From: a virus
Lineage: Duplodnaviria > Caudoviricetes
IMG/VR virus record: IMGVR_UViG_3300030102_004787
Location: 1-59,211 of that record
Length of the DNA stretch: 59,211 nucleotides
Strand: one strand, 5' to 3'
Shown: piece after piece, positions 26,701 through 54,431 of the stretch
How the letters are laid out: each line of letters starts with the position of its first letter
Numbering within the stretch: position 1 is the stretch's first letter
The notes under the pieces: generated by a model
Seen by the model: the letters and a program-made list of their open reading frames with translations, nothing else
The model's database searches: none
What the model was told of the DNA's origin: nothing
Made by a program: the position numbers and the translations under genes

Positions 26701-28644
26701 ATATCAGAACAAATATCTCAACCACTTGTTTTTGAAACAGAGCCAGTTGAATCAAATCCTAATTTCTTTTTTGAAGGAGAAGAATCTTATGAAATAACAA
26801 ACGGCAAACACCAAGGAAATTTTCAAAATCAATTTGATTGGGATTTTCACGACAATGCTCAAAACAATGCGTATAGAACTTTAGCTTCATTACCTCCTTC
26901 TCCTAATGGATATGGTGGTAATGTGGCTTTTTCAGACTCAACAGTAGTAGGTGGAAATAACACTCCTCATTCTTACTCTGTGGGTGATACCGTTATAATA
27001 AACCAAAGTGTTGGCTTTACTCACACAGAATATCAAGGAGAACACACAGTTGTAGAGATACCTGATCAATATACCATTGTTATAGATGTTGCTTTTCAAG
27101 GATCAACATCTCAACAAGGTGGATCAGCTAATTCACCTGCCATTATTATAAATGAATTTTATGACTGTTTTACATTTAGAAATGGAGTAGAAAGTATTAG
27201 AATATTAGATTCTATTAAAAAACAAAACTTTACTATAGGAAACAGAGTTTATGGAGTGTCTGATGAAGAGTTCAAAGAAGCTGATAGAGGAGCTTCTGTA
27301 ACGTATAGTGGGTTATTTAACTTAGAAGGAAATATTAATCGTTTAAATTCTTTTAATTTAGGAAACTTAAACTTTAAAGATTTAGACAATAGGTATGGAG
27401 ATATACAAATATTAGATGGTAGAAAATCTGATTTATTGGCTTTACAAGAAAATAAAATATCTTATGTTCTTGCAGAAAAAACTCAATTACTAAACTCTGA
27501 TGGAAGCGCAAATATATCAGCATCTACAAATGTGTTAGGAACTCAAATTGCTAGAGTTGAAGAGTATGGTATTAGTAGAAACCCAGAAAGTTATGTACAA
27601 TATGGTGTTGGTAAATATTTCACAGACTCTGCTAGAGGTGCTGTTATAGAGCTTCGTGGAGATTCGTACAGTAATGAACAGCTTAGTGTAGTTTCAAATT
27701 TTGGGTTGAGAAGTTGGTTTAGGGATTTATTTATTGAATATCCAAACACACAAAAAATAGGTTCTTACGACCCTTTTATTGACGAATATGTTTTATCTTC
27801 TAATGAAATTAAATTACCCCAAGAGATAAAACTATACAACTGTGGAAATATATTAACTTTTACAACAAGAAAAGATAATGTAAATTACATTGTAGATTAC
27901 GGAACTGGTGTAGGTTCAGGAAGTCTTGGATATGATATTTCTGCAGGTGAGATTACATTAAACGTAACTTATGATGGAACCACCGCTACCACAGGAGCTG
28001 TTACTGGTAGTGGAACTTTAAACTTTACAAAAGACAAAGCGTCTGTAGAAGAAGCTAATGTTGAGGTAGTTGTGAGTAATCCAAGTGTAACACCAGCTAC
28101 TTTTCAATTAACAAACACTTGTATTAATGCTGCTGAATTTTCAGTTGTTTTAGTAACTGTTTATAATCCTGCTGATGCTGGAAAACAAATAACCAATAAG
28201 TTTAGATGGTCTAATTCAGAGCCTTTTGCAAGCCCATTGTATTCGGATACCATTATTTTTGAAACTGACATTATCCCTGGAAAAACAGCCGGCAACTATG
28301 TAGCTCAGTATGAAATTATATCAGGTCAAGAAGGTGTTAATATGATACCGACCACAGGTTTGGTTACAGGATCTGTTTCTTCAGTGGTGGATGTTATTAC
28401 TTCCAAGGAAGTTTCTGACACGTATGATTTTGATCCTACTAGTAACAGGCAAATGTATTTTTGGAGTAACATATTATACCAAAATGAGCCAACTAATATT
28501 AATGCTTTGCTTACAGCAGCCAACAATATTTCTGGCACATCTGAAATAACAAATGGTGTGTATTCAGGTTCATTTAATTTTAATCCTTCTGCACCACCTC
28601 CAGCTTTAAATTATCTTTATATTATATATGATTATTTTACATAA
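23758..28644 (+). CDS. Large tail nozzle/stabilisation-type protein
   Basis: 1628 aa beta-rich; MNKSDDERI..GEYIDALN start, LLFWTDDYNPPRKIN, FAYRYRY, NRLMYGNY, EEYGISRNPES. Confidence 0.65.
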   Translation: MKTVSTFLKGVMNKSDDERILAPGEYIDALNLRTGSTAVSEVGSLEKAKGNEKLTDITFQGTALSSEAVCIGSYADQISNNIYWFINDPNNGDLIVSYNVVTGNIIYHVLSVSVLNFNKTYHINGVNLIGDLLFWTDDYNPPRKINVKRTYGLPTGGSDTIVEDDLSVIVKPPSEKPTVILTESPPLEEGYVFDNFLCFAYRYRYLDGEYSALSQFTSPAFRPQDEFDFDFSTSLNDSMQNKFNSLTLQFNTGDKRVTDIELCFKDSNNDVIKVIDSYNKAENGWVNNATQSILFKDKKIKNVLATSEILRLFDNVPRFAKAQTFQSNRLMYGNYVDGYNIKDSNGNDININFNSELFQPSQESPLTNTSTSSNIVGTITDSDYLMGNPGVTNTISDTEATFDFTGVQFTAGTLITFSCSIVSGLQSEVVNDNAALLNLNVTRSNPVIANVGFSFYINDSYANAYDFFNSDEFERAFGIGPANIAPTKSFTSFTSAGSGSPPTVTDIINNGSLLNPAGNTVTGTTANPVNSAANFASPNNPTGCQDGTSISPPNYPVGQTGFKITTVAPPNNDTNKITMQLPMPVYYSTPGSAGGVFSFEGVRYQASAPPFFTVNGLSDKKSLHSNRDYDIGLIYMDEYNRSSTPLLSNNSSFKVPASNSVIQNKAKTTIPPSMNPPSWAKKYKFAIKPSGLDYDTIYAVRAYPDADEVDFFWCLLEGEQAAKVTEGQILIAKNDGNSPKSNYEEVVVITKTTQPNINSSTYNFPAGVYIKLKRTTSYDPIGGDFKSVNVEEVKSEQGSSLAPQYANLCLDLSPMLTGPWTTGIIPVGTYITIDVLFEREKADTFLFTACKEIGYQHLKITKRANKDYNVSTGPPGNNFRSNLTQMIVDQFVPGFNGDFPVSNIFFGPNSEPEFPIKFTGEIIQTPSANKPLGDYHVITLNPSNTPGNPAIGFACNYQACTSAVSPTELDFAPSKISASITISEQISQPLVFETEPVESNPNFFFEGEESYEITNGKHQGNFQNQFDWDFHDNAQNNAYRTLASLPPSPNGYGGNVAFSDSTVVGGNNTPHSYSVGDTVIINQSVGFTHTEYQGEHTVVEIPDQYTIVIDVAFQGSTSQQGGSANSPAIIINEFYDCFTFRNGVESIRILDSIKKQNFTIGNRVYGVSDEEFKEADRGASVTYSGLFNLEGNINRLNSFNLGNLNFKDLDNRYGDIQILDGRKSDLLALQENKISYVLAEKTQLLNSDGSANISASTNVLGTQIARVEEYGISRNPESYVQYGVGKYFTDSARGAVIELRGDSYSNEQLSVVSNFGLRSWFRDLFIEYPNTQKIGSYDPFIDEYVLSSNEIKLPQEIKLYNCGNILTFTTRKDNVNYIVDYGTGVGSGSLGYDISAGEITLNVTYDGTTATTGAVTGSGTLNFTKDKASVEEANVEVVVSNPSVTPATFQLTNTCINAAEFSVVLVTVYNPADAGKQITNKFRWSNSEPFASPLYSDTIIFETDIIPGKTAGNYVAQYEIISGQEGVNMIPTTGLVTGSVSSVVDVITSKEVSDTYDFDPTSNRQMYFWSNILYQNEPTNINALLTAANNISGTSEITNGVYSGSFNFNPSAPPPALNYLYIIYDYFT

Positions 28645-29444
28645 TGTCAGAATATACTTTAACATATAGCCCACAAGACAAAGGATGGCCTTCTTTTTAT
28701 TCTTTTATACCAGAGTCTATGGTAGGTCTAAATAATTATTTTTATTCATTTAAAAATGGTCAGTTATACCGACACAATACTAATGAAAATAGAGCTAATT
28801 TTTATAATGTTCAGTATGACTCTACTGTTACTAGTGTGTTTAATCAATCTCCTTTGCAAAATAAATTATTTAAAACTCTTGAAATACAATCAGACACAAA
28901 GTGGAAAGCTAATTTAGAAACTGATTTATTAGACTCTCAAGGAGTTGTTCAAAAAGCATTAATAGAAAATAATTATTTTGAAACTAAAGAAGGAAACCAA
29001 TTTGCATTTATTAGATATGTAAGTAATGATGTTGACTTTTTAATAAGATATGCAAATGGTATTGCTAGTTGTACAACAGTAACCAATATAGGTGGTAATT
29101 TATATGAAATAGCTTTTGGAGTTGGTGTTCAAATAGACTCTATACTCAGTGTAGGTGATACTATATTTTCTCCAGGAGTTGCTCCTTCTGGTGTAAAAGC
29201 ATCTGGAACAGTTACAGCTGTTAATCGTTCTACAAATATTATAACTATAGAAGCAGTTTTACCTATTTTACCGCCATTAAATGGTGAATTTATAATGTAT
29301 GTTAAAAATACGGTGGCTGAATCACACGGTGTAAGAGGTCATTATATGAAATATACATTAACAAGTCAGGATAGATTTCCTTCAGAATTGTTTTCTGTAG
29401 TGTCAGATGCGATGATGAGTCACCCTACTTTACGTAAAAATTAA
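28644..29444 (+). CDS. Tail protein (continuation of the nozzle module)
   Basis: GWPSFYSFIPE, KLFKTLEI and GVRGHY motifs; translationally coupled to the upstream gene. Confidence 0.6.
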   Translation: MSEYTLTYSPQDKGWPSFYSFIPESMVGLNNYFYSFKNGQLYRHNTNENRANFYNVQYDSTVTSVFNQSPLQNKLFKTLEIQSDTKWKANLETDLLDSQGVVQKALIENNYFETKEGNQFAFIRYVSNDVDFLIRYANGIASCTTVTNIGGNLYEIAFGVGVQIDSILSVGDTIFSPGVAPSGVKASGTVTAVNRSTNIITIEAVLPILPPLNGEFIMYVKNTVAESHGVRGHYMKYTLTSQDRFPSELFSVVSDAMMSHPTLRKN

Positions 29445-31957: not shown

Positions 31958-34900
31958 ATGAGTAATCAAGAAATATACGAAGAATTAAAAAGTATTGGAG
32001 TTCTTAAAGACAAGACCTTTAATAAGTTTCAAGAAGATATGAAAGATGAATCTTATAAATCAAAGGTTCAAGATGTGTTAGGTGTTGATCTTCAAAAAAA
32101 AAAAGACTCAACTTCCATTTCTCCAGAGGAAAGTATGGAATCCACTACCGTGGAAAATCAAGCTCCTATCTCATCGGAGTCTTCTCAAACTCAAGTAACA
32201 GAAAAGGTTGAACAGCAATCATCTGAAGTAGAACAACCTACTGAAGATGATGATAGTGAACCCAAAACTCCTCCCACTTCAACAACGGAAGTAGATGATT
32301 CTTGGAAGGTAAAGTACAAAGAAATTACAGGTCTAAACCCTGATGAAGAGGGTGTTACTTACGAGCAAGCAAAACAAGGTTTTATTCCAAATAATCCTAC
32401 TAGCGTAAAGTTTAGAGGGCAAAACTTTAAAACAGGGTCTATTAGTTGGAACAGCCAATCATTAGGGCAAAAGTTAAGCAGCAGGAGATACGCTAAAAAA
32501 TATGGCGTTGAAGATTTGTTTGGTAAAAATGGTATATACTGGGAGAAAGGATATAATGATGCCAAAGCTTCGTTAGAGTTAGAAATGCCTGAGTTTGAAC
32601 CAGAAAAAGAAGTGGTTGAGGCTGAGGTTATTGACTCTTCAACTATGCTTGATGAAGTTGAAGTAACAACTGTATCTTTAGAAGAAGCAACTCAACCAAC
32701 TGATTTTGAAAAATTAGATGATGACTCTAAAGATTTAGTGGTTTCTAATATTACTACATCCAACCCTGATTTGGATCCTGAAAAAATAGAAGTAGTATCC
32801 GTTGAAAAATATACTCAAGAAACAAAACCCGTTGAAGTAGCTGATGAACTTATTGATGAAATTGATGTAGTTTCTGGTGAGCAAAAAACTAAAGCTCAAA
32901 AAATACAGGAGTTAGAAGGTGAGATTCAAAAAATAGAAGAAGACAATAAAGCTGCTGAAGAATTACCTGCAAATTTAGAAGATCAAAAAAAGCAAACGCT
33001 TCAAGTCAATAAAGAATTAAAACAGCAAAAAGAGGATCAGATTTCAGAATTGAAACAAGATGTGGCTCGACAAGAAACCACTAGTGAGTACAAGGCTAAA
33101 ATAATTTATGATGGCAAAGAGATGGAGGTTAATGCTGGTACTACCACTACTCTTCCTGAGTTTGAGGTGGTTGCTCCATCAAAAGAAACTGAGAAAGTTT
33201 TTGAAAAACAAGAAGAACAATTTCAAGAAAGCCAATATAATATATTAGCTGATGAGGTTGCATCTAAAATAGGAAAGTATTCCACTGGAGAAGAATCAGA
33301 TCTTCCAAGCAAACAAAGAGTAAAAGCCAAAATAAAAGAGATAGTTTCCTTACAAGACTCTCCTTATGATCCTCCTGTAGAAATATTAGATAACGAAGGA
33401 ATTGGAAGGGAAGTAATCACAAGTGAAGAAGAATATAGTGAGAGATTTATTAATGATGTCTTTAATGAATATGGTATAGAAGCATCACAAGATGAAGAAA
33501 TTATTCCTGGTGTAGATAGGATTAAACTTAGAGCTGTTGATGAAAATGGAAATGTTACTGCTGAAACAACTATAGATTTAGATATAGCTCGAACAGATTT
33601 AGATTTAGATTTAAAACCAATTACTGGAGGAGGAGAAGGTGATTTAGCTATACAGATACTTGATCCTGAAGAGCAAAGAAAAAAAATTCAAGCAGAAAGA
33701 AAAAAGTTAAAAAACTTTATAAAAGAAAACGCTAGGCCAAAGAAAGTAGAAACAGAAAAAGACGTGAAACTTTCTGATCCTGCCGAACTTAATGCAGCCA
33801 GAAAAGAAAGAAATGAACTTTTAGTTGAATTACAAAAAGTTAAAAACGCTACTATTGAATCAATGTTAGAAGCTGCTATGGAAGTGGATGAGCTTCTAGA
33901 TATACTTTCAGATGAAGACAGTACGTTTGAAGAAGTTCAACAAGCACAAGAAGAATATTCTATTGCAACAAAAAAACTTTCTGATCTAAGAGATGATATT
34001 ATAGTAAAGATTAGAGTTATTGATGAATTAAATGATTTAATAATTGAATCTGAAACAGAATCCTACAAAAACATAAAAGAGTTTGGTGTTCCCGAAGGAG
34101 ATGTTGACTATAGTTTATGGTCTTACTCTTGGGATATATTTTTAAATTCATTTAAGGACAGTATATTCGGAACATTTCAAGCGGCTTTAGAATTACTTAG
34201 ATTGCCATTCGGTGGTTTAAGTAAAAAAGACAGAGAGTTTTTAAGAGATGATTTTGATAATTTATTCTCTGGATTAGATGCTGATATAACAGATCTTGAA
34301 AAAGCTAAAGCAAATTACAATGCTGGATGGTGGCAAAAGTTTGGAACAGTATTATTAGAGTTATTAGGTAATGCTGCTGCCGCTTTAACACTTGGAGGTG
34401 GTTCTGGGTCTGTAGGTTCTGTGTTAATGAAATTATTACCTGTTGAGTCAGCAGGTATGGTGTATGAAAGAACATCTCAAAGAATGGATGAAGATCCTAT
34501 TTTTGATAAAATACCAGAGTGGCAAAAGACTTTATTAAAAGATTCCATTGCTTTAGTTATTTACTTTTTAGACAAACTGGGTCTTAAATTATCTGTTGGT
34601 CAACTAAATAGAATATTAATACGTTTAATTGAAGAGTATTCTAAAAAAGCTTCTAAATCTTCTTCAAAGGGTGGTTTTATAAAATATGTTATTGATCAGT
34701 TAGCTGACCCAAACAAAGTAGTTAGATTAGTTGAAAAATCAGCTATAGCTGGATCAGGAGAGGGAAGTACCGAGATAATGCAGGGACTTGGTGAAAAAGC
34801 TTTGAAAGATTTATTTAACCTTACTCAAGATGAAGATGTTTTTAAACCATCTGAAGTGATAGTAGGTAATGAAGATTTAATTGCTCAGTCAATGGAGGAG

Positions 34901-37900
34901 GGGAGTTTAGGTTTTGCCGCAGGAGCATTGCTTGGTCCTTTAGCTCCAGGGGATATAAATGCTTTGAATGACGAAGATATTTCTAGAGCTATCATCACAT
35001 TAGACAAAAACAGTAATGAAAATCTAATTGCTAATCTAAAAGTTAAAATAGCAGAAGGTAAAATGACTGCTGATGACGCTAGTGCTATTATAAATTTTAA
35101 CGAGCAAGTACAGCAGATTGTAAATAAATACAAGGATTTGCCAGATCTTACAAAAGATGAACTTTTTGAATTAGTAAAAAAAGATGCTTTACTGCAAGAC
35201 TTAGAACAGCAATTTAATCAGGGTGGTACTGTTGCTCAAAAAATATTAGGACCCAGGATAGACAAGTTAAAAGCAGAGATGGATGCTATAGCAGAAAATG
35301 CTGTTAAGAGATCGGAGGGAAAACAAATTGAAGAAGCTGAAATAACCCCTGAACCTGAAATAGTGACGGAGCCTGCTCCTGAACCAACTGAGGAAAATGA
35401 TATTATTGAAGCAAGGAAGATTGCTTCGTTTGCTATATCTAGAGATAACAATTTAACATTAGAAGAGCTCAGTCAGGTTGCTGAGTTAATGCCCGATTTA
35501 GATATTGACATTAGTACAGACAGAGATATTAAAGCAGATGAATTACTAACTAAAATTAATGATTATGCCGTACAAAGGGAAACAGCTGATAGCGTGCAAG
35601 ATACAAGAGAAGAAGGACCTGAAAGCAGGCCGGAAGGTGAGATGGAAGTGCCACAGCAACAAGAAGAAGTCCAAGATGAAAAGCAGGTAGATGAAGATAA
35701 ACCTGAAGATGAAGGGCCAGATGAACCACAAATAGAAGTAGCTGGAGTTACATTAGAAGATGTTAAAAGAATATTAGGTGAAGACCCATCTACTGAAGAC
35801 GTGTTCTTTGAAGGTAAAGGAATTAAAAATAAGATAACTAAAATAAAGAGACACGTTTTCTCTAGAAGAAAATTCTTGCCTAAAATCTGGAGTAACTTAG
35901 TAGATCAACGAGACAATCAACAAGCAGCTGATTTGTTTAGAGCTGAGAAATTACTACAGCGATATAATGACAAACTAAAGAAACTACCTAAATCTCAACA
36001 AGAAGTTATTAACAAAATAGGTGGTTTATATTTATCTGGTGGTTTACCTAAATCATTTTTAGATGGTGAAATATCTAGAGATGAAGCCATTACTGAAGTG
36101 GAAAATCAAATTGCTGATTTAAACTTACAGTTAGAACAAACCGATAATGAGTCAGAACAAAGAAAGATTAAAGATCAAATAAACAACGGTATTGACTTCT
36201 TGTTTTTTTTATCAGATATGGATGCAGCTTTGAGTGAAGAGGGGGGTCAGCTAGTTCCCGATGATGTTATTGATATTATAACAGAAATGAGGGATATGAT
36301 AGATGATTTTTCTAAAAGCTTGATATCTGATCCAGATGTAGAAATATCCGAAAACAAAGCTCAGACCATAGAAGAAAATCTTGGAGAGTATGTTAATAGA
36401 AATTATCAAGTTTATAATGATGCTGATTGGAAAAACAAAGTTAGTGAAGAAGTAAAACAAAATGCAGAGAAGTTTTTCTTTGATCAGTATATGAAGTCTT
36501 TCAATCAACAGCAGGAAATGTTGGAGATAGGTCCAGAAGGAGGAACTTTTACGGATCCTATTACTGGTGAAAAAGTAACTGTAAAAGCGGAATCAAAGGA
36601 AGAATTAGAAAACAAACTTAGAAAAAGAGCTAAGAATAAAGTAATATCTATTTTAAGTAAAGAAGGTGCTACTCAAGTCTTAACAATATCTGACAGTAAA
36701 GGCATATTAAAAGAAAGAAAAGACATTCCAATTGAAATAAGAATGTTGATGGGAGAGTATGGTGATACAGGAAGTAAGTTTGTAACTACGGTAACTAAAC
36801 AATCATCTGTATTAAGAAATGCTCAAATGAGAGGTCGTTTTATAAAAACGGGTCTTGATAATGGTTTTATATTTAAAACAGAAGAAGAAGCTTTAGATAA
36901 TAGTGAGGGCGATCAACAATATAATGCTAAAATAACAATAGGAGATAAAACATATTACACTGCTCCTAGTGTGGCATCTGCTTATAACCAAATGAATAAT
37001 GCACAAAAGTCTTATGACTTTTTAATAAACACTTGGTTAAAGGCAGCTTCAGCAGTAAAGTGGGGAAAAACTATTGGTTCTCCAGCTACTCAAAGTGTAA
37101 ACTTTTTATCTAACACAGGTTTTGCGGCTGTGAATGGTCATTTACTTGCACCAGGTGCTGGTAAAGAAGCTAGACAAACATCGCTTTCAGAGTTGTTTAG
37201 TTTTTGGACAGACCCGAATACAAAAAAAGAACAGCAGGAGAAATACGCTAGATATATAGAACTCGGTATAGTAAATCAAAACGTTGGTTTAAATGACATA
37301 AAAGAGTTTGCAAAAAGAGGTGAAGAGAAATGGCTTGAAGACCAATTAAAAACTAATTCTAGTTGGAGGCAAGCTTTTCAATGGGCTGGTAAAGGAGCTG
37401 AAAAGTTATATGAAACAGGAGATAACTTTTGGAAAATAAAAGGGTTTGAAGTAGAGAAAAACAGATATGCTGATGCTTTATATGGAAAACCTTTTGAAGA
37501 GTTGACAGAAGCTGAGAAAAAAGATGTAGAAGAAAGGGCAGCTGAGATAATTAAAAATGTATATCCTAATTACTCTAAATTACCAGAGTATGTAAATGAA
37601 AAAAGAAGATCATCTCTTGGTCCTGCGTTTAGTTCTTTTATTGCTTTTCAGTATGAGTCTTATCGAACTATGTTTGAAACTTTGGCTTTAGCTAAAGAAG
37701 AAATGAAAAACCCGAAGTTAAGAGGAGTAGCTGGTAGAAGAATTGCTGGGGCATTAAGTTACTATGCTGCCAAACAGACTATTCTTGGAACATTAGCCTC
37801 TTCAGCTGGTTTTGCAATAGGAGGTTTAGCAGGAACATTAACGGGTGTTGATGATGAAGAGTCAGAAGAGTTATCTAAATTAAGAGATAGATACTTGCCA

Positions 37901-39109
37901 GAGTGGAGTAAAGGAAAAGGGTCTGCTATATTTACCATAAAAAATCAAGATGGAACATATAGTTATATTGATTTATCACAAATGGATCCTCATCAAAACA
38001 TTGAAAAAATAAGTATGGCATTTACTGAATCAGAAAACATAGCTGATTTTATGATTAAAGTTGTAAGTGAAGGTCTTATAAAGCCTTTTGCATCTGGAGA
38101 TATTGTGGCTCAATGGGCATCTGATTTAGCAACAAATAAAGACTTTTTAATATACAATCCTACTGATCCATTTCAAGTCATATTGAGTGATGTTCTATCT
38201 TATACCAGCAAAAAATTAGCACCTGGTATTTATTCAACTGCTGAAAAATTAATGAAAGATCCAGGGAAAGGCTTGCTTTCTTTCTCAGGAGCTAGGCCCT
38301 ATGATATAGATATACCTAGAGCATTTAATCGTAAGGTTCAGGCATTAAGATACGGAGATATAGAATATTTAATAAAAGATGGGTTAAATGATGCGATCAG
38401 AGATTATGCGAGAGATGCTAAAGTAGATTTAAAATTTTTAGATGAAAATTTTGATCAGCGATCTCAGACTCCTTTAAGTTTGGAAGGGGAAGAAATAGAT
38501 GTAATGTTAGATCCATTAACTAAGTCTATTTTTGGGGGTCTTACTTTGAGTGAATATTATGATAAGCAAAACGAAAGATATAAAGAATACATTAATGAAG
38601 CTCACTTAGATTATAAAGCTGCTATAGAAGTTTATGGTATGGACGAAAAAGATCTTCAAAAGATTATGAAAGATGAAGGTATGAGAGACGAAGAGATACT
38701 TCAAATTATGAATAACACACCCAAGGATATTGAAACTAAATATGGAAAGCTTATAAAAGCTGAAAAGATAGCAAGTCTTAAAAGAAAAATTCAAAAAGAC
38801 AAAGAAAAATTAAAAGCTGGTGGAATGTCTATTCAATCAACGAATAAGTTAAAGGATCAAATTGAGCAGAACGAAAGAAGATTTGATGTGATGACAGGAA
38901 AAACGCAGAAGGAAAACTTAAAAGAAAGACTTTCTCAAAGACCTGATCTTAGAATAAATGAAAACGATTCTCAAGAAGTTAAAGCGGAGAAGAGAAGAAA
39001 GTTAAATGAAGAGATTGAAAAAAGAATGCAGATAGGTTATTCTCAAGAAGGTTTGTATCCAAAGATAAAACAATTTAATGGTGTAGTGGATATGTTACTT
39101 CAGGAATGA
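31958..39109 (+). CDS. Giant (2383 aa) putative ejection protein
   Basis: Acidic helical N-terminal half with Gly/Ala-rich hydrophobic segments; last gene of the virion arm. Confidence 0.6.
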   Translation: MSNQEIYEELKSIGVLKDKTFNKFQEDMKDESYKSKVQDVLGVDLQKKKDSTSISPEESMESTTVENQAPISSESSQTQVTEKVEQQSSEVEQPTEDDDSEPKTPPTSTTEVDDSWKVKYKEITGLNPDEEGVTYEQAKQGFIPNNPTSVKFRGQNFKTGSISWNSQSLGQKLSSRRYAKKYGVEDLFGKNGIYWEKGYNDAKASLELEMPEFEPEKEVVEAEVIDSSTMLDEVEVTTVSLEEATQPTDFEKLDDDSKDLVVSNITTSNPDLDPEKIEVVSVEKYTQETKPVEVADELIDEIDVVSGEQKTKAQKIQELEGEIQKIEEDNKAAEELPANLEDQKKQTLQVNKELKQQKEDQISELKQDVARQETTSEYKAKIIYDGKEMEVNAGTTTTLPEFEVVAPSKETEKVFEKQEEQFQESQYNILADEVASKIGKYSTGEESDLPSKQRVKAKIKEIVSLQDSPYDPPVEILDNEGIGREVITSEEEYSERFINDVFNEYGIEASQDEEIIPGVDRIKLRAVDENGNVTAETTIDLDIARTDLDLDLKPITGGGEGDLAIQILDPEEQRKKIQAERKKLKNFIKENARPKKVETEKDVKLSDPAELNAARKERNELLVELQKVKNATIESMLEAAMEVDELLDILSDEDSTFEEVQQAQEEYSIATKKLSDLRDDIIVKIRVIDELNDLIIESETESYKNIKEFGVPEGDVDYSLWSYSWDIFLNSFKDSIFGTFQAALELLRLPFGGLSKKDREFLRDDFDNLFSGLDADITDLEKAKANYNAGWWQKFGTVLLELLGNAAAALTLGGGSGSVGSVLMKLLPVESAGMVYERTSQRMDEDPIFDKIPEWQKTLLKDSIALVIYFLDKLGLKLSVGQLNRILIRLIEEYSKKASKSSSKGGFIKYVIDQLADPNKVVRLVEKSAIAGSGEGSTEIMQGLGEKALKDLFNLTQDEDVFKPSEVIVGNEDLIAQSMEEGSLGFAAGALLGPLAPGDINALNDEDISRAIITLDKNSNENLIANLKVKIAEGKMTADDASAIINFNEQVQQIVNKYKDLPDLTKDELFELVKKDALLQDLEQQFNQGGTVAQKILGPRIDKLKAEMDAIAENAVKRSEGKQIEEAEITPEPEIVTEPAPEPTEENDIIEARKIASFAISRDNNLTLEELSQVAELMPDLDIDISTDRDIKADELLTKINDYAVQRETADSVQDTREEGPESRPEGEMEVPQQQEEVQDEKQVDEDKPEDEGPDEPQIEVAGVTLEDVKRILGEDPSTEDVFFEGKGIKNKITKIKRHVFSRRKFLPKIWSNLVDQRDNQQAADLFRAEKLLQRYNDKLKKLPKSQQEVINKIGGLYLSGGLPKSFLDGEISRDEAITEVENQIADLNLQLEQTDNESEQRKIKDQINNGIDFLFFLSDMDAALSEEGGQLVPDDVIDIITEMRDMIDDFSKSLISDPDVEISENKAQTIEENLGEYVNRNYQVYNDADWKNKVSEEVKQNAEKFFFDQYMKSFNQQQEMLEIGPEGGTFTDPITGEKVTVKAESKEELENKLRKRAKNKVISILSKEGATQVLTISDSKGILKERKDIPIEIRMLMGEYGDTGSKFVTTVTKQSSVLRNAQMRGRFIKTGLDNGFIFKTEEEALDNSEGDQQYNAKITIGDKTYYTAPSVASAYNQMNNAQKSYDFLINTWLKAASAVKWGKTIGSPATQSVNFLSNTGFAAVNGHLLAPGAGKEARQTSLSELFSFWTDPNTKKEQQEKYARYIELGIVNQNVGLNDIKEFAKRGEEKWLEDQLKTNSSWRQAFQWAGKGAEKLYETGDNFWKIKGFEVEKNRYADALYGKPFEELTEAEKKDVEERAAEIIKNVYPNYSKLPEYVNEKRRSSLGPAFSSFIAFQYESYRTMFETLALAKEEMKNPKLRGVAGRRIAGALSYYAAKQTILGTLASSAGFAIGGLAGTLTGVDDEESEELSKLRDRYLPEWSKGKGSAIFTIKNQDGTYSYIDLSQMDPHQNIEKISMAFTESENIADFMIKVVSEGLIKPFASGDIVAQWASDLATNKDFLIYNPTDPFQVILSDVLSYTSKKLAPGIYSTAEKLMKDPGKGLLSFSGARPYDIDIPRAFNRKVQALRYGDIEYLIKDGLNDAIRDYARDAKVDLKFLDENFDQRSQTPLSLEGEEIDVMLDPLTKSIFGGLTLSEYYDKQNERYKEYINEAHLDYKAAIEVYGMDEKDLQKIMKDEGMRDEEILQIMNNTPKDIETKYGKLIKAEKIASLKRKIQKDKEKLKAGGMSIQSTNKLKDQIEQNERRFDVMTGKTQKENLKERLSQRPDLRINENDSQEVKAEKRRKLNEEIEKRMQIGYSQEGLYPKIKQFNGVVDMLLQE

Positions 39110-49218: not shown

Positions 49219-49403
49219 TACTTATCGTTTTTAATTGTTAGTATTTTGTCATTCTCTTTTTTGAACCACACCAATAAATTTATTAGTTGGTCTAACTCCA
49301 ATGCATTCAACCTATTCTCTGAGTAGTGTAATCTAGTTACGTTCTGATTAAATAGTTTTGTAGCTTGGTTTTTTATATCATTGATTAAATTTTGTTTGTT
49401 CAT
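49218..49403 (-). CDS. Hypothetical early protein
   Basis: 61 aa ORF coupled to the next gene. Confidence 0.6.
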   Translation of the reverse strand: MNKQNLINDIKNQATKLFNQNVTRLHYSENRLNALELDQLINLLVWFKKENDKILTIKNDK

Positions 49404-49529
49404 AACTGTTTATTTTATTTATTAATTTAATTGCTCTGTGTATGTAGTATCTATTGCTCATTAGTTTCGAGTCCTCCAGAAATGTCATTCTATTTCTTAG
49501 GTCCTGTTTTATTTTATCGTAGTTCATAT

Positions 49530-49829
49530 TTATATTTCTTTTATAATTCTCATAGCCTTAGCTAATAACCAAGTCCCACCTTGAGACTCGGGCCTGTTCT
49601 CGTAGGTAAAGTCATCTACTTCTACCTCTACCCACACTCTACCCTTAGTTCCTAAATGTGGAGCCTCTGGTTTAAGAGTACAGTGCCATCCAGGTCTGAA
49701 CGCAAAGCCTTTTGTATTATGTTCTTCAGCTTCCATCCATACACCAATTGGCAATCTGTTTGTTTTGTTTATAAACAAGGATGACAAACTGCCGTCCTTC
49801 ATTTTTCTTACTAATTTATACGCTTTCAT
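49530..49829 (-). CDS. Hypothetical phage protein
   Basis: 99 aa with KAYKL, RPGWHC and RVWVEVEV motifs. Confidence 0.75.
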   Translation of the reverse strand: MKAYKLVRKMKDGSLSSLFINKTNRLPIGVWMEAEEHNTKGFAFRPGWHCTLKPEAPHLGTKGRVWVEVEVDDFTYENRPESQGGTWLLAKAMRIIKEI

Positions 49830-49968
49830 CTTTTGTGTTTTTATTTATTAAAGTTTTATTAAATAGTTCTGTTTCATTTTTACAATTATTCTGATCAATA
49901 CATTCCTTTAGCCATAAATCTGAATAGTAAATAATAAAGTCAAAATCATTTTTCATAGTTGTTTGTTT

Positions 49969-50157
49969 TTATTTTTTTGCGAATGTGTAGCAATCATTAT
50001 ATAAGTTTTTCTTATTGTGTTTATATATATCATATGTATGTACATTTTGTGTCGATGTACATTGAGACATTACAATAATGGTTAATATAAAAATTGTTGA
50101 TACTGTTATGATTTTACTCAAGTTAAACCATATCATATTCTTTGTGTACTTATTCAT
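49969..50157 (-). CDS. Small membrane protein or lipoprotein
   Basis: Basic N-terminus, hydrophobic stretch, MSQC. Confidence 0.5.
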   Translation of the reverse strand: MNKYTKNMIWFNLSKIITVSTIFILTIIVMSQCTSTQNVHTYDIYKHNKKNLYNDCYTFAKK

Positions 50158-50197
50158 AATTATTTGTTTTTTGTTTGTTTATTGTTTGTTTGTTATA

Positions 50198-50301
50198 TGG
50201 TGGGGAAAGGAGGATTCGAACCTCCGATTCCGTTTAACCTTTTTACTTGCGAAGTAGAAAGGGTGATTAAGTTTGATAGCATCTCGCTCAATCTTTTCCC
50301 C
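50198..50301 (-). ncRNA. Non-canonical tRNA-like RNA (104 nt)
   Basis: Acceptor stem GGGGAAA/TTTCCCC plus ACCA and T-arm GGAGG-TTCGAAT-CCTCC are perfect; D and anticodon regions are enlarged and atypical. Confidence 0.75.
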
Positions 50302-50312
50302 TATTTTTATTT

Positions 50313-51038
50313 TTAATCTACTACAAACCCTGTAGTATCTTTTTTAGCGTCTCCTTTTGCTTTGAGACCTAGTACTACATTTTTGTATTTTGTCATTTCT
50401 AAATCTGTTTTGTCTCCGTCTACCACTTTGAAACCTTTGTAGGTATCCGGTAATTCATTTCTAAATACTATCGACACATTGCCACCTGCATTTAATACGT
50501 TCATAACGTCCTGTTCATTGTCTTCCTTTCGTGATAATGTTACGTGATACCTAGTATCTAAATACTTTTTAACTTTCCCAGGTATGGCCGTATAGTCATA
50601 CACTATAATATTTTTGTATGTATCATCATTTAATAAATCTAAATCCGCATACTTTTTCAATTGATACACAAAATCAACATCGCTCAATGTGTTTAGCCTT
50701 AAAGCAAATATTTCATTTGTCAATTTACTTTTGATGGCTATTTTATTTATTTCCTTTGCCAATTGATTAATAAATTTTTGCCTATCAAATAAATAGTAAT
50801 TTGTTTTGTTTATCCGTGCCTGTTGTACGTTGGTAAACTTTCCACGGCCTGCGGTAAATAAACAAGCTAATGCACAGCCCTTGGAGGCTTTCGGGCATAT
50901 GTTTGTACCTTTTGCATTTTGTTTGTATGGTGCAAGAGATAGGTTGTAAGTTGTTACTTCGTTCTTGTTTATCTTTGCATTGCCCCCCTTAGATAGTAAG
51001 TTTTTTACTTCTTTGTATTGCTTTGTTATTGTTTCCAT
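50313..51038 (-). CDS. Gp88-like protein with CxxxxxxCxxxC motif (possible Fe-S / radical-SAM-like)
   Basis: NICPKASKGCALACL..AGRG, LRLNTLSD, YDYT, VDGDKTDL, GLKAKG. Confidence 0.7.
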   Translation of the reverse strand: METITKQYKEVKNLLSKGGNAKINKNEVTTYNLSLAPYKQNAKGTNICPKASKGCALACLFTAGRGKFTNVQQARINKTNYYLFDRQKFINQLAKEINKIAIKSKLTNEIFALRLNTLSDVDFVYQLKKYADLDLLNDDTYKNIIVYDYTAIPGKVKKYLDTRYHVTLSRKEDNEQDVMNVLNAGGNVSIVFRNELPDTYKGFKVVDGDKTDLEMTKYKNVVLGLKAKGDAKKDTTGFVVD

Positions 51039-51396
51039 TTAATTGTTTGTTTATTGTTTGTAAATCGTTGGTAAAGATATTAAAGTTTTTTTAATATCCA
51101 AATATTTATTTAAAAAAGTATTGTTTCAATCCTCATAAATTTTCTTTCATTTCGTCAAAATCCCCAAAAATTTAGTGGTCTATCATCTGTTAAATGTCTT
51201 TTTGGATTGCGTTTCCGTTTTGTTTTTTTCTTTTTTCAATACTCTTTTTTTATTTTTTAAGTTTTAAAAATTTAATTATACAATGACATTTTAAAATGTT
51301 TCTGCTTGTTAGCTTTATTCAAATTGCAATAAATTAAATCTTTGCTTTGCTCCGTCCGTTTTAGATGTGGTCCCCATCGTCTAAATATGTTTGTTT

Positions 51397-51591
51397 TTAT
51401 CTCCTTTTTGCCCTTCTTCGCTCCCTTTGTTTGTTTGCCCTTTCAGCCTTAAAAATGCTTCTATCAATTTCGCTAATTTGCTGATCAATTATCGATTGAA
51501 TCTTTACTAATCTACGGCCTTTTTTATGCTTGTTTGCTCCGTTTCCTAAATCCAGTTTATAATCTTTTTTATTTGCTCTGTATTGTATCAT
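51397..51591 (-). CDS. Small basic early protein
   Basis: 64 aa, Arg/Lys-rich. Confidence 0.55.
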   Translation of the reverse strand: MIQYRANKKDYKLDLGNGANKHKKGRRLVKIQSIIDQQISEIDRSIFKAERANKQRERRRAKRR

Positions 51592-51659
51592 CGCGCCTGG
51601 TTTTGTGGGGCCTTTCGGCCCCTGTTAATATTATTTTATTGAGATTAATTTATAATAAT

Positions 51660-51875
51660 TCATAATTTTGATTTATCTAAAAAATAATTATATACTTCTG
51701 GTATATGTTTTTTATAATAAGGCTGCTCTGATTTGACCCAATTCTTAAGTTCAGATTTACTTTTAAATGATTGATATTTATAAGTTAATTCTAATTCATC
51801 AATAAAGTCTCCAACTGTCCAGCCTTCCCATATATGTTTATCTCTATTCATAGATAATATTTTTAATTGTTCCAT
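51660..51875 (-). CDS. First early hypothetical protein
   Basis: 71 aa, HIWEGWTVGDFIDEL...QPYYKKHIPEV. Confidence 0.7.
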   Translation of the reverse strand: MEQLKILSMNRDKHIWEGWTVGDFIDELELTYKYQSFKSKSELKNWVKSEQPYYKKHIPEVYNYFLDKSKL

Positions 51876-52650
51876 AATATAAATTTAAGTTTGTTTGTTT
51901 GCAATTTGTTTGCGTTTCGTTGGTACAAGTATACAACAAAAAAGAAATACGATCCAAATTTTGTTTAACCTTTTTGATTTTGATCTCACCAGGTAAACAA
52001 CAGATAAGAAAAAAAAGTTTAGCACGTTAAACAAAACAACAAAGTTTTCTAACCTGTTTAACAGGGAACAAAAAAAAATTAATAAACTTTTGGTTGATTT
52101 TAGCACCTGTAAAATGACAATAAAAAATATTTTTGTTTAGGTTAATTATTTGTGGAGCGGGTTCTATTCCTTCCCTCTGAACGTCTTGAAGGGAAGGTTT
52201 AAGATTTAAACTTACTCTGTTGGGCAGGTTAATGTTTAAAACGTTAAACGAAAAATAAATTGTTGTACATACTAGGATTTAAAAATTAAAATTTCAACGT
52301 GTATGCACACGCATACGCTACGCACACGCTACGCATCACACACGCATATACACGCACGCGCAAAAACGGCAAAAAATCCGACAAAAAAAAGTTTTTTTTA
52401 TACCCCCCTATCACAAAAAAAATCGTTTTCGTATGCGTATACACGTACGTATATTAATATATAACCCCCTACTTCTATACATCTAATATATATTGTATCT
52501 TTATATATACTGTATGTTACTACGGTAAATTCCTTGGGACGTTTTTCTGCTGAGAAGTGAAAAGCTAGTTGTAGTTAAAGCCTACCATCAGCAGTGTCCT
52601 GGGGTTAATTTCTTTAAAATAGGTCTATTTTGGGACGTTTTAGTACTTTA

Positions 52651-52767: not shown

Positions 52768-52798
52768 TTTGGTAGTATAGTATTTCTTTATATATTTG
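52768..52798 (+). promoter_or_regulatory. Full Bacteroidota primary-sigma promoter for groEL
   Basis: TTTG (52768-71), 19-nt spacer, TATATTTG (52791-98). Confidence 0.75.
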
Positions 52799-52826: not shown

Positions 52827-54431
52827 ATGTCCTACACGCCTAAAGAGTTGGTCTTTGATGAAGAGGCCAAGCAAAAGTTAAAGAGTGGTATTAGTAAGAT
52901 CTGCAACGCAGTCAAGAGCACTCTTGGTCCAGCTGGTAAAACAGTAGTTATTGAATCCCCTAATCACACCCGTGGTATTACAGTTACAAAGGATGGAGTG
53001 ACTGTAGCTAAGTCGGTTTATTTGTTAGATCCGGTAGAAAATCTAGCGGTTCAGATGATTAGAGAGGCTTCTCAAAACACTGCAGATTCGGCTGGAGATG
53101 GTACGACAACAAGCATAGTTTTGGCTGAAGCATTGATAGAACAGGGGTTGGATGAGTTGGAGGAGGCTCCAGATATGAATATTCCTAAGCTTATAAAGCA
53201 GATAGGCGAAGGGAAGGATAAGGTGGTCAGAGAGCTAGAGAAAATGGCTAAGAAGCTAAATAAAAAAAGACTGCTAGACGTGGCTTCTATATCGGCAAAT
53301 AACGATAGGGACATTGGTAAAATTATTGCCGAAGCTTACGATAAGGTGGGAGCTGATGGTGTAGTGACGGTAGAAAACTCTGAGACTTCTGAGACATATG
53401 CAGAGGTGTATGATGGTATCAAGCTAAAGCGTGGGTATACCAACAATGCGTTTATCAATAATCAAAAGAGGGACGAGTGTATACTGGAGAACTGCTATGT
53501 GTTAATTACGGATCACGTTATAAATAATGTGTTACAGATTGAGAATATATTAAAACCAATCATCAATCAAGGCAAGCAACTTTTGATCATAGCGGACTGC
53601 GGTCAGAACGTAGTGAATACGCTGGCGGCAAACGTGGCTAGAAATGGTTTGAAGATCTGTAACATTACACCACCTAAGTTTGGGTATAAGAAGCAGGAGA
53701 TGATGGGTGATATTGCGCTGGCTACTGGTGGGGCTTATATCAGTGAGTCTACTGGGGATGATTTGAATATGATATCGCTTGATCAGCTGGGTATGGCAGA
53801 GAAGGTGATCGTAGGTAGGGAGGACACGGTGATGATCGGTGGTAAGGGAGATAAAGAGGCGATTGAGGAAAGGGTGAAGGAGCTCAAGGTTCAGCACGGT
53901 AATCTAAATGCGAAAGGTGAGCGAGACTTTGTAACGGAGCGTATTGCTAGTTTGAAGGGTGGGATAGGTGTGATCTTTGTCGGTGGGCACTCTGACATTG
54001 AGCAAAAAGAAAAATTTGACCGCATTGAAGATGCGGTGTGTGCTGTTAGCTCAGCACTAGAGGAAGGAGTCCTTCCTGGAGGTGGGGTGAGTTTATATAG
54101 GGCAGCTCACAAATTAATGGACACAGGGTCTAGTTTTGGAGAGATCTTGCTGTATAAGTATTGTATTACAGAGCCTTTCTTTAATATATGTAAAAACGCA
54201 GGTATGGAGGATATGGAGATTGCGGAGATTGAGACCTTGATCCAGAACAGCGAGATCAATATGGGATACGATGTAAAGAACAATATGTGGGGTGATATGT
54301 ACAAGATGGGTATATTAGATCCGCTTAAAGTAACTAAGAACGCACTAGTCAATGCTGTATCAGTGGCTACGACTATATTAAGCACTAACGCTATTATTAC
54401 AATGGCGAGAGAAGTAAGTAAAGGAGAATGA
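52827..54431 (+). CDS. groEL: Chaperonin GroEL (Cpn60), phage-encoded
   Basis: AVKSTLGPAG, VTKDGVTVAK, AGDGTTTS, EEGVLPGGG, GILDPLKV. Confidence 0.97.
   Translation: MSYTPKELVFDEEAKQKLKSGISKICNAVKSTLGPAGKTVVIESPNHTRGITVTKDGVTVAKSVYLLDPVENLAVQMIREASQNTADSAGDGTTTSIVLAEALIEQGLDELEEAPDMNIPKLIKQIGEGKDKVVRELEKMAKKLNKKRLLDVASISANNDRDIGKIIAEAYDKVGADGVVTVENSETSETYAEVYDGIKLKRGYTNNAFINNQKRDECILENCYVLITDHVINNVLQIENILKPIINQGKQLLIIADCGQNVVNTLAANVARNGLKICNITPPKFGYKKQEMMGDIALATGGAYISESTGDDLNMISLDQLGMAEKVIVGREDTVMIGGKGDKEAIEERVKELKVQHGNLNAKGERDFVTERIASLKGGIGVIFVGGHSDIEQKEKFDRIEDAVCAVSSALEEGVLPGGGVSLYRAAHKLMDTGSSFGEILLYKYCITEPFFNICKNAGMEDMEIAEIETLIQNSEINMGYDVKNNMWGDMYKMGILDPLKVTKNALVNAVSVATTILSTNAIITMAREVSKGE

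Follow-up and report, generated by a model that had tools for sequence, protein, structure and literature searches.

The subject of this report is a 104-nucleotide (nt) RNA resembling a transfer RNA (tRNA), encoded on the minus strand of IMG/VR virus record IMGVR_UViG_3300030102_004787. The record is a 59,211-bp sequence with a completeness estimate of 89%; it was analysed over its whole length and is referred to below as the window. The RNA is a chimera in which the upper half of a Bacteroidota tRNA-Tyr is joined to an unrelated core of two hairpins. It is a genuine and unusual feature with clear boundaries, it is under selection, and its origin is explained by the tRNA-Tyr upper half plus a foreign core. 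The reading favored here, at a probability of roughly 0.4, is that it is an accessory phage gene for a non-decoding RNA that would act in trans as a mimic of the upper half of tRNA-Tyr. A first-pass annotation of the window, made from the sequence alone, had described the element as an enlarged, non-canonical tRNA-like RNA. The assignment of its acceptor stem, T arm and discriminator base to Bacteroidota tRNA-Tyr(GUA) is new.

The minus strand of positions 50198-50301 reads letter for letter as described in that annotation. The acceptor strands GGGGAAA and TTTCCCC form 7/7 Watson-Crick pairs and are followed by an unpaired discriminator, A73, and an encoded CCA. The T arm, GGAGG-TTCGAAT-CCTCC at 50209-50225 (minus strand), has 5 bp and the loop UUCGAAU. 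Hairpin 1 is GATTGAG(15 nt)CTTAATC, with 7 bp that include one G.U pair and a loop able to add three more pairs. The linker AC joins it to hairpin 2, CCTTTCTAC(TTCGCAA)GTAAAAAGG, which has nine stem positions, one C.A mismatch and the 7-nt loop UUCGCAA. Position 8 is A, i.e., there is no U8, the hairpin 1 loop is without GG, and the 3:70 pair is G3:C70. Thus the perfect acceptor stem, T arm and CCA, the 7-bp D-like arm, the 9-position anticodon-like arm with its single mismatch, and the lack of U8, of the D-loop GG and of the alanine determinant G3:U70 all stand as first annotated. The loop that would read CGC (Ala) is likewise present, but the alanine reading becomes a side issue, because acceptor stem, T arm and A73 all belong to a host-type tRNA-Tyr.

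In structure modeling the minimum free energy fold is the same cloverleaf, with a four-way junction (-31.5 kcal/mol, z = -3.31), and 1 of 200 shuffled sequences folds as well. The structure is beyond chance because the acceptor strands and T arm belong to a real family, Bacteroidota tRNA-Tyr. A search of the core against the rest of the window for antisense targets or repeats gave no match longer than 13 nt.

To trace the upper half, sequence collections were scanned with a pattern that fixes both acceptor strands as well as the T-loop block and allows a middle of any kind, 42-72 nt in length. In viral contigs it is found in three stretches, all of which ARAGORN calls tRNA-Tyr(GTA). In bacterial and archaeal contigs, with one genome per species, it is found in at least 120 stretches. 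Among the matches listed, every one of the 120 measures 81-84 nt. The anticodon loop CTGTAAA of tyrosine is present in 116, which are mostly of Bacteroidota and otherwise of Clostridia origin; the remaining four are from archaeal metagenome-assembled genomes, and CCA is encoded in 46 of the 120. When the RNA was compared by BLAST with five of these genomes, only positions 75-104 aligned, in all five cases to tRNA-Tyr(GTA) genes with 96-100% identity. A wider comparison with 191 genomes of the host order gave matches at E <= 1e-4 in 36, of which 34 show 96-100% identity and the whole set 90-100%; none of these matches extends outside positions 75-104. The matched host loci are tRNA-Tyr(gta) by ARAGORN in 9/9 examined.

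Taken together, the 7-nt 5′ strand and the 30-nt 3′ end agree with tRNA-Tyr at 37/37 upper-half positions. No such kinship is seen in the 67-nt core (positions 8-74): against 71 distinct tRNA-Tyr cores, 129 of 200 shuffled versions score at least as high as the core itself. A sequence with tRNA-Tyr ends and a foreign core is not the pattern left by uniform decay. The earlier contention that this is not a uniformly decayed tRNA therefore holds, and it is joined by the observations that the helices are kept and that one pair covaries in the homologue described next.

One homologue was found. A metagenome scan for enlarged forms returned ten loci, of which only L147, a 1,379-bp marine metagenome contig, carries a homologous RNA. 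A covariance model, R1, was built from the two known copies, as had been proposed in the first-pass annotation, and gives the L147 RNA a score of 132.4 bits. The two RNAs differ at 6/104 positions. All 35 upper-half positions are unchanged and all six changes lie in the core. G15 to A together with C31 to U converts the hairpin 1 pair 15:31 from G-C to A-U, a compensatory change, and U33 to C converts pair 13:33 from G.U to G-C. Position 45 changes the hairpin 2 mismatch from C.A to A.A, which stays unpaired, and the rest of that stem is invariant. The other changes are at position 24, in a loop, and in the spacer at position 66. All pairs survive the six changes. In a simulation, six random substitutions break no pair with P = 0.049, and with P = 0.0096 when at least three fall in paired positions. 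Relatives with a normal tRNA at this place and no covariation in the enlarged arms had been named beforehand as a condition against the first-pass view; the D-like arm does show a compensatory change.

The adjacent gene provides a yardstick for the divergence of the RNA. The GP88 proteins of the window and L147 are 97.7% identical, and their genes differ at 39/175 third codon positions and 14/51 four-fold degenerate sites. The RNA, with 6/104, is significantly less diverged than either (Fisher p = 2e-4 and p = 5e-4, respectively), four to five times below the four-fold sites. The A-rich trailer that follows the RNA differs at 8/39 positions (p = 0.022 versus the whole RNA).

The position of the RNA is not the same in the two phages. 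The gene order in the window is GP88, RNA, small hydrophobic open reading frame (ORF). In L147 it is GP88, a homologue of the small ORF, an 87-amino acid (aa) ORF, the RNA, and a different 70-aa ORF. Homology between the two loci begins at G1, with 17/30 columns differing upstream of it, and runs about 39 nt beyond the CCA, near the next start codon. The different slots and sharp homology edges therefore show that the RNA and its trailer behave as a cassette. A trans-acting element is a better fit to this autonomy than is a signal for one particular gene.

The RNA was also looked for in related phages and in hosts. GP88 relatives are present at 13 IMG/VR loci (38-93% identity), and the RNA is absent after GP88 in all 13. 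The sequence that follows GP88 differs among these relatives, with the exception of L010/L011, which are identical, and L008/L014, which are copies. A BLAST search with the RNA in five whole related records gave no match longer than 19-26 nt, and R1 found none in ten whole related virus records (0/5 and 0/5). In 80 loci anchored on the primase gene (1.36 Mb), about 51 of which reach the equivalent place upstream, no homologue was detected by R1, which gave three weak hits, the highest-scoring of them (26.3 bits) being a normal tRNA-Met. Ordinary tRNAs are also scarce. Rfam RF00005 detects none in five records of relatives, ARAGORN none in 11 GP88 loci, and ARAGORN in 60 of the 80 primase loci finds two tRNA-Met genes in two loci. 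As to the normal tRNA that formed part of the condition named beforehand, relatives were found to carry neither a tRNA nor the RNA here.

Among host-order genomes, R1 in 151 gave a best score of 39 bits, from ordinary long-arm tRNAs, compared with 131 for the RNA. No homologue of the RNA was found in the 191 genomes by BLAST, 151 of which were also searched with R1. Patterns for the T-arm/acceptor 28-mer, the hairpin 2 19-mer, and the spacer with T arm found nothing in IMG/VR. In GenBank phages 170 records match, with coverage of the RNA never above 38% and every match due to tRNA T-arm likeness, and the 3 kb of DNA around the RNA has no match there. Thus L147 is the only homologue that emerged from these searches, and the RNA is an accessory gene. 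Coordinates are collected in Table 1.

Table 1. Coordinates of the tRNA-like RNA, its parts and its neighbors in the window.
Feature	Window positions	Strand	Basis or remark
tRNA-like RNA, G1 to encoded CCA, 104 nt	50198..50301	-	sequence and fold; R1 score 131.4 bits
Acceptor stem 5′ strand GGGGAAA, RNA positions 1-7	50295..50301	-	equals the 5′ end of Bacteroidota tRNA-Tyr
Hairpin 1, D-like arm, RNA positions 9-37	50265..50293	-	7-bp stem and 15-nt loop; fold
Hairpin 2, anticodon-like arm, RNA positions 40-64	50238..50262	-	8 pairs and C.A mismatch; sequence and fold
Single-stranded spacer, 12 nt, RNA positions 65-76	50226..50237	-	where tRNA-Tyr has the variable arm
Block copied from tRNA-Tyr, RNA positions 74-104	50198..50228	-	T arm, TTTCCCC, A73, CCA
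A-rich trailer, 39 nt, up to next start codon	50159..50197	-	moves with the RNA as one cassette
GP88-family protein (PF17338, phrog_1617), upstream neighbor	50313..51038	-	stop codon 11 nt before the RNA
62-aa hydrophobic small ORF, downstream neighbor	49969..50157	-	L147 homologue lies upstream of the RNA

The RNA belongs to none of the standard families considered, i.e., tRNA, tRNA-Tyr, transfer-messenger RNA (tmRNA), Y RNA, or the remnant of an attachment (att) site. At gathering thresholds it matches none of 4227 Rfam families and ARAGORN makes no call, so the expectation that neither a canonical tRNA nor a tmRNA would be called was correct. On its own strand, E-value mode gives tmRNA as the sole Rfam match; this scores 18.4 bits (gathering score 47) and spans the acceptor stem and T arm only. 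The other rows are sub-threshold matches to plastid untranslated regions on the opposite strand and a small nucleolar RNA match outside of the RNA. A canonical tRNA is rejected on the lack of a call by ARAGORN and by RF00005 at gathering thresholds. The RNA has the 7-bp acceptor, the 5-bp T stem, the 7-nt T loop of UUCGAAU type and the unpaired discriminator of a canonical tRNA, but not U8, a 3-4-bp D stem with G18G19, or a 5-bp anticodon stem. Similarly, it shares the acceptor stem, T arm, G1-C72 and A73 with bacterial tRNA-Tyr, but has neither the anticodon GUA (U35) nor a long base-paired variable arm.

An intron-containing tRNA was also rejected, as relaxed ARAGORN with introns allowed gives nothing under 8/9 settings; the ninth, at 80% of threshold, gives a tRNA-Phe call that is shifted and implausible. 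The tmRNA candidate is rejected on G3:C70 in place of G3.U70, an empty ARAGORN -m search, and the absence of pseudoknots and of a conserved tag frame. A bacterial Y RNA (YrlA) is rejected as well. The record has no match to TROVE (Ro60), no Y-RNA family is among the Rfam matches, and the ends of the RNA form a tRNA acceptor stem with CCA, unlike the Ro-binding stem of Y RNA. The sole ORF on the same strand has 29 aa and meets a stop codon in L147. Of the four other changes inside this frame three are non-synonymous; the RNA is therefore not a protein gene.

The RNA is intergenic, 11 nt past the GP88 stop codon and 40 nt ahead of the next start codon, with both flanking genes on the same strand. 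No promoter-like or terminator-like site of its own was found, and the sole terminator-like call at the RNA is its T arm read on the opposite strand. Because it has no promoter or terminator of its own, we infer that it is part of a leftward early transcript. It would be transcribed inside this early operon, cut by RNase P at G1, and trimmed at the 3′ end back to the encoded CCA by host tRNA-maturation enzymes, which would read only the 12-bp acceptor/T-arm stack. The freed RNA would then display the tRNA-Tyr upper half while having neither a GUA anticodon nor a structured variable arm. Judged from the sequence, its arm geometry and the lack of U8 and G18G19 should make it unable to decode normally. 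With respect to aminoacylation marks, A73 and G1-C72 are present, and U35 (for the tyrosyl-tRNA synthetase, TyrRS) and G3.U70 (for the alanyl-tRNA synthetase, AlaRS) are missing.

The likeliest role for such a molecule would be that of a competitor or decoy for a host factor that recognizes tRNA-Tyr. The leading candidate target would be a tRNA-Tyr-cleaving defense nuclease of the Septu/PtuAB kind, which cuts in a variable loop that is absent here. According to the accessible text of three papers (PMC13096335, PMC11555353, PMC12673091), the PtuAB nucleases of Septu and retron-Eco7 cut tRNA-Tyr in its variable loop at U47/C48 or C48/A49, the phages T5, SP15 and T6 counter this cleavage with their own tRNA-Tyr, and one of the three raises the choice "decoy or supplement". 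The RNA has 12 nt of single strand where the cut hairpin of tRNA-Tyr would be. Thus, going by these descriptions, it departs from the host tRNA exactly in the variable loop, the part cut by PtuAB-type nucleases. It is conceivable, if quite doubtful, that the RNA is the first RNA-only anti-defense element of its kind, one that would be matured by the tRNA enzymes of the host, bind Septu/PtuAB-like nucleases, offer no variable loop to cut, and so spare the host tRNA-Tyr pool while infection lasts.

Several points weigh against the trans-acting mimic. On the comparative side, only two copies are known, and the support from comparison therefore amounts to one covarying pair. The pairs of hairpin 2 are invariant in both copies and show no covariation either way, a two-sequence shuffle control does not discriminate (259/500), and the core alone is not significantly more conserved than the trailer (p = 0.13). 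The low divergence of the RNA could result in part from recent transfer of the cassette. On the functional side, a non-decoding mimic is unable to replace lost tRNA-Tyr, as the known phage countermeasure does. The recognition of tRNA-Tyr by PtuAB is left unsettled in the accessible part of PMC12673091, and binding through the upper half is conjectural. No tRNA-related partner enzyme was found among the 36 window ORFs scanned with PHROG and Pfam, many small early ORFs being unscanned, and no RNA-type data are on record among the 24 listed sequencing runs that hold the stretch.

A cis processing signal, or "t-element", should also be considered; it is the next most probable reading, though an unlikely one. 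Here the upper half would serve only for RNase P and 3′ cutting of a polycistronic early transcript, and the excised RNA would have no role. As in such elements, an acceptor/T-arm upper half is found between genes of one transcription unit; plant mitochondrial t-elements act in this way, as described in the accessible portion of PMC1920247. The tight intergenic position, the lack of a promoter or terminator of its own, and the invariance of the 35 upper-half positions, with all six changes left to the core, agree with it. An encoded CCA aids bacterial RNase P, and the RNA has one. However the genes on both sides differ in the two phages, and the RNA is thus not serving the expression of one gene. 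About 90 relatives manage without it, and a structure-preserving change in the core is needless for a bare cleavage signal. A t-element role may also be compatible with an additional role in trans. A still more doubtful explanation is that of a neutral relic, i.e., a tRNA-Tyr gene acquired from the host or another phage, whose middle was swapped by one rearrangement and which has since drifted without function. The RNA is rare, with two copies known, and close relatives, whose GP88 is 71-93% identical, are without it. Phage-like metagenome contigs hold other tRNA-like genes that are enlarged or odd, in some cases with the same acceptor, which suggests that such rearranged tRNAs originate repeatedly, and the core is not slower than the trailer to a significant degree (p = 0.13). 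Yet 37/37 identity of the upper half next to an erased core is impossible by gradual decay, neighboring four-fold sites have diverged four to five times as much as the whole RNA, its six changes break no pair, and it came through a change of slot that left its 5′ edge precisely at G1. The trans-acting role is placed above both the cis signal and the relic because the neighbors differ and most relatives are without the RNA.

The remaining explanations are far less probable. One is that the 3′ end of a host tRNA-Tyr was taken up as an integration core (attP-like) and the rest of the structure arose by chance, which is hardly credible. Positions 75-104 do equal a host tRNA-Tyr 3′ end (96-100%, or 90-100% order-wide), and about 30 nt is a typical length of tRNA-borne attachment cores. 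The first-pass annotation had named a host tRNA 3′ end as an outcome that would tell against it, and that much is found; the att-like remnant is not. The 5′ strand GGGGAAA stands at the right distance, with two hairpins folding between the strands, and the 89%-complete record, with its crAss-like, lytic-type gene set, has no tyrosine integrase (PF00589) and no resolvase-type recombinase (PF00239). None of the 191 bacterial genomes holds more than the tRNA end, and thus there is no prophage junction. The 5′ strand, the lack of integrase and resolvase, the empty place in relatives and the compensatory D-like change in L147 are the reasons why the host 3′ end does not refute the RNA. An equally slight chance attaches to a working decoding tRNA that would use the CGC loop to read GCG, or hairpin 1 to read some other codon. 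The hairpin 2 loop is a well-formed 7-nt loop with U at the place of U33 and A at the place of 37, and odd-armed natural tRNAs exist, among them tRNA-Sec, tRNA-Pyl and the allo-tRNAs in the accessible text of PMC7609411. By that same source, however, natural stems reach up to 6 bp, a size exceeded by the 9-position anticodon stem and by the 7-bp D stem with its 15-nt loop. G18G19, U8 and the G3:U70 needed for AlaRS are all missing. Tyrosine identity needs U35, which is critical for TyrRS according to the accessible part of PMC9976931, and loop position 35 is G. The relaxed ARAGORN results given above are also against it. Least probable of all is a miniature molecule of tmRNA or Y-RNA type. The best Rfam match is indeed tmRNA, aligned to its tRNA-like domain, but it reaches 18.4 and 19.3 bits where the gathering score is 47; G3:C70, the empty ARAGORN tmRNA mode and the missing pseudoknots and conserved tag frame oppose it, as do, for a Y RNA, the lack of a Ro60 (TROVE) gene in the record and of any other RNA family match on the RNA's own strand. 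Of the functions proposed at first, the tRNA mimic remains the best fit.

Comparison with known systems places the RNA near several of them. Like the phage tRNA-Tyr genes used in counter-defense, as these are described in the accessible text of the papers above, it is phage-borne, carries the acceptor and T-arm identity of tRNA-Tyr, and lies in a variable genome region. Those of T5, SP15 and T6 are full decoding tRNA-Tyr(GUA) molecules that replenish the pool. The RNA, without GUA, the variable hairpin or a canonical D arm, could therefore be a competitor only. The t-elements of plant mitochondria resemble it in having an acceptor and T-arm upper half between the genes of a polycistron, with a degenerate lower half (PMC1920247, as far as its text is accessible); unlike these organellar elements, the phage element moves as a cassette between gene slots. 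The tRNA-like structure of bromoviruses, TLS-Tyr, is likewise a viral RNA that mimics tRNA-Tyr without decoding and has A73. In the accessible part of PMC9976931 it is the 3′ end of an RNA genome, mimics U35/A36 and has the eukaryotic C1-G72. The RNA described here is instead a discrete gene of a double-stranded DNA phage, with bacterial G1-C72 and no anticodon mimic.

With the tRNA-like domain of tmRNA, its sub-threshold best Rfam match, the RNA shares the acceptor stem, the T arm, CCA and the lack of an anticodon arm, but it has no G3.U70, tag frame or pseudoknots and is about one third of the size. RNAC and RNAD of phage T4 fold tRNA-like. They are small phage RNAs linked to tRNA genes, with roles that are unexplained in the accessible text of PMC3014915; they sit in a tRNA cluster, whereas the present phage is without any tRNA gene, and the likeness is one of description only. 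The open-access literature searched gave no account of a phage gene for a non-decoding RNA that copies the upper half of a host tRNA.

The gene set of the window, from PHROG and Pfam scans of 36 ORFs, points to podovirus-like phages of Flavobacteriia. Structural genes include terminase, portal and virion proteins. The primase-helicase is of the BT4734 type, with its closest named relatives in Flavobacterium, Cellulophaga and Polaribacter phages, and Erf, an exonuclease, GroEL and an HNH endonuclease are also encoded. A crAss-type muzzle-protein C-terminal domain (E = 6e-13) is found in the region of 28644-29444 (plus strand) / 31958-39109 (plus strand). The gene with this domain adjoins proteins of 2,383 aa and 1,628 aa, both without a Pfam match, which suggests a crAss-like virion module in a 59-kb marine phage. 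The GroEL-type chaperonin is at 52827-54431 (plus strand; Pfam Cpn60_TCP1, E = 2.5e-60; phrog_5725), and just upstream of it, at 52768-52798, is one of only ten Bacteroidota-type promoter motifs in the window. ARAGORN finds no tRNA or tmRNA gene in the whole window.

The sequencing runs that hold the stretch are marine metagenomes. Four DNA runs were examined and showed no new variant of the RNA. Contig X6 is identical across it, and in X4 and X7 the contigs end at 50154 and resume at 50372, so that the RNA is not covered there. The GP88-family gene is also present in relatives without the RNA, and no solved structure was found among GP88 relatives. When window positions 49400-52500 (minus strand) are compared with L002-L013, the sequence after GP88 appears as a cassette zone, in which small genes vary among the related phages fetched, with the same two pairs of loci, L010/L011 and L008/L014, excepted. 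The A-rich junctions that precede start codons resemble each other across the cassette zone of these phages.

Other odd tRNA-like genes were encountered. The element at L145:6267-6404 (minus strand) is a 138-nt tRNA-Tyr-like gene in a tRNA-rich metagenome contig that also has a normal tRNA-Tyr; ARAGORN makes no call for it. It has the loop CUGUAAA, a variable hairpin, the T arm GGAGG/CCUCC and the acceptor GGGGAAG/CUUCCCC, and a hairpin of about 56 nt (z = -3.1) stands in place of the D arm. The elements at L141:2956-3048 (minus strand) and L150:143-243 (plus strand) are enlarged tRNA-like RNAs of 90 and 98 nt up to A73. Both have the acceptor GGGGAAA/UUUCCCCA, as in the window RNA, with A at position 8, an AU-rich T arm (AUAGG/CCUAU) and unrelated cores. 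They adjoin canonical tRNA genes, have no encoded CCA, and score 36 bits with R1 through the upper half only. A search for their T-arm pattern in viral contigs found nothing.

A further set of tRNA-like genes, of 114-117 nt and uncalled by ARAGORN, is found in L142/L144, L145:11543-11662, L148:2791-2910, L143/L146 and L149:569-688. These lie inside large tRNA arrays and have a normal-looking D arm, while their anticodon/variable region is longer by some 40 nt; possibly they are tRNAs that bear an intron or a long arm. The array of L143 has 20 tRNA genes, with many repeated Ala, Glu, Gly and Lys genes, and includes two that ARAGORN labels "tRNA-???", with two-letter anticodons, at 2255-2327 and 3611-3684. 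In a related phage whose primase is 62% identical, a 96-nt element at L210:1176-1271 (plus strand) has a 7-bp acceptor AGACGGG/CCCGUCU, a T-arm loop UUCGAAU, two inner hairpins and a 15-nt spacer, with a weak fold (z = -1.6). Its place, some 5.5 kb upstream of the primase gene, is in the same neighborhood as that of the window RNA, and a search for the element as a host tRNA copy gave a match in 1/121 genomes, i.e., it is not a copy. Finally, L008:600-1780 (the same in L014), from a distant relative with a 43% identical GP88, has four or more occurrences of the palindrome AGTTACCTCGGAGGTAACTAC or of a near copy, together with three tRNA-like pieces that bear a T loop and are uncalled by ARAGORN and Rfam.

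As a relic, the RNA would be a clean example of the rebuilding of a tRNA gene by core replacement, and if it is a processing signal, bacterial viruses would have a counterpart to the organellar t-elements. The favored trans-acting mimic has wider consequences. Phage tRNA genes are weapons against tRNA-cutting immunity, and tRNA-Tyr is one proven target. If the mimic is real, mimicry would take the place of replacement, with the enzyme-recognition half of the tRNA kept and the decoding half discarded. If it is specifically a decoy, the odd tRNA-like elements of L141, L150, L145:6267-6404 and L210:1176-1271 would join it in a wider class of "upper-half tRNA decoys". A mimic of this make-up would also mean that a class of phage RNA genes escapes the standard tRNA finders.

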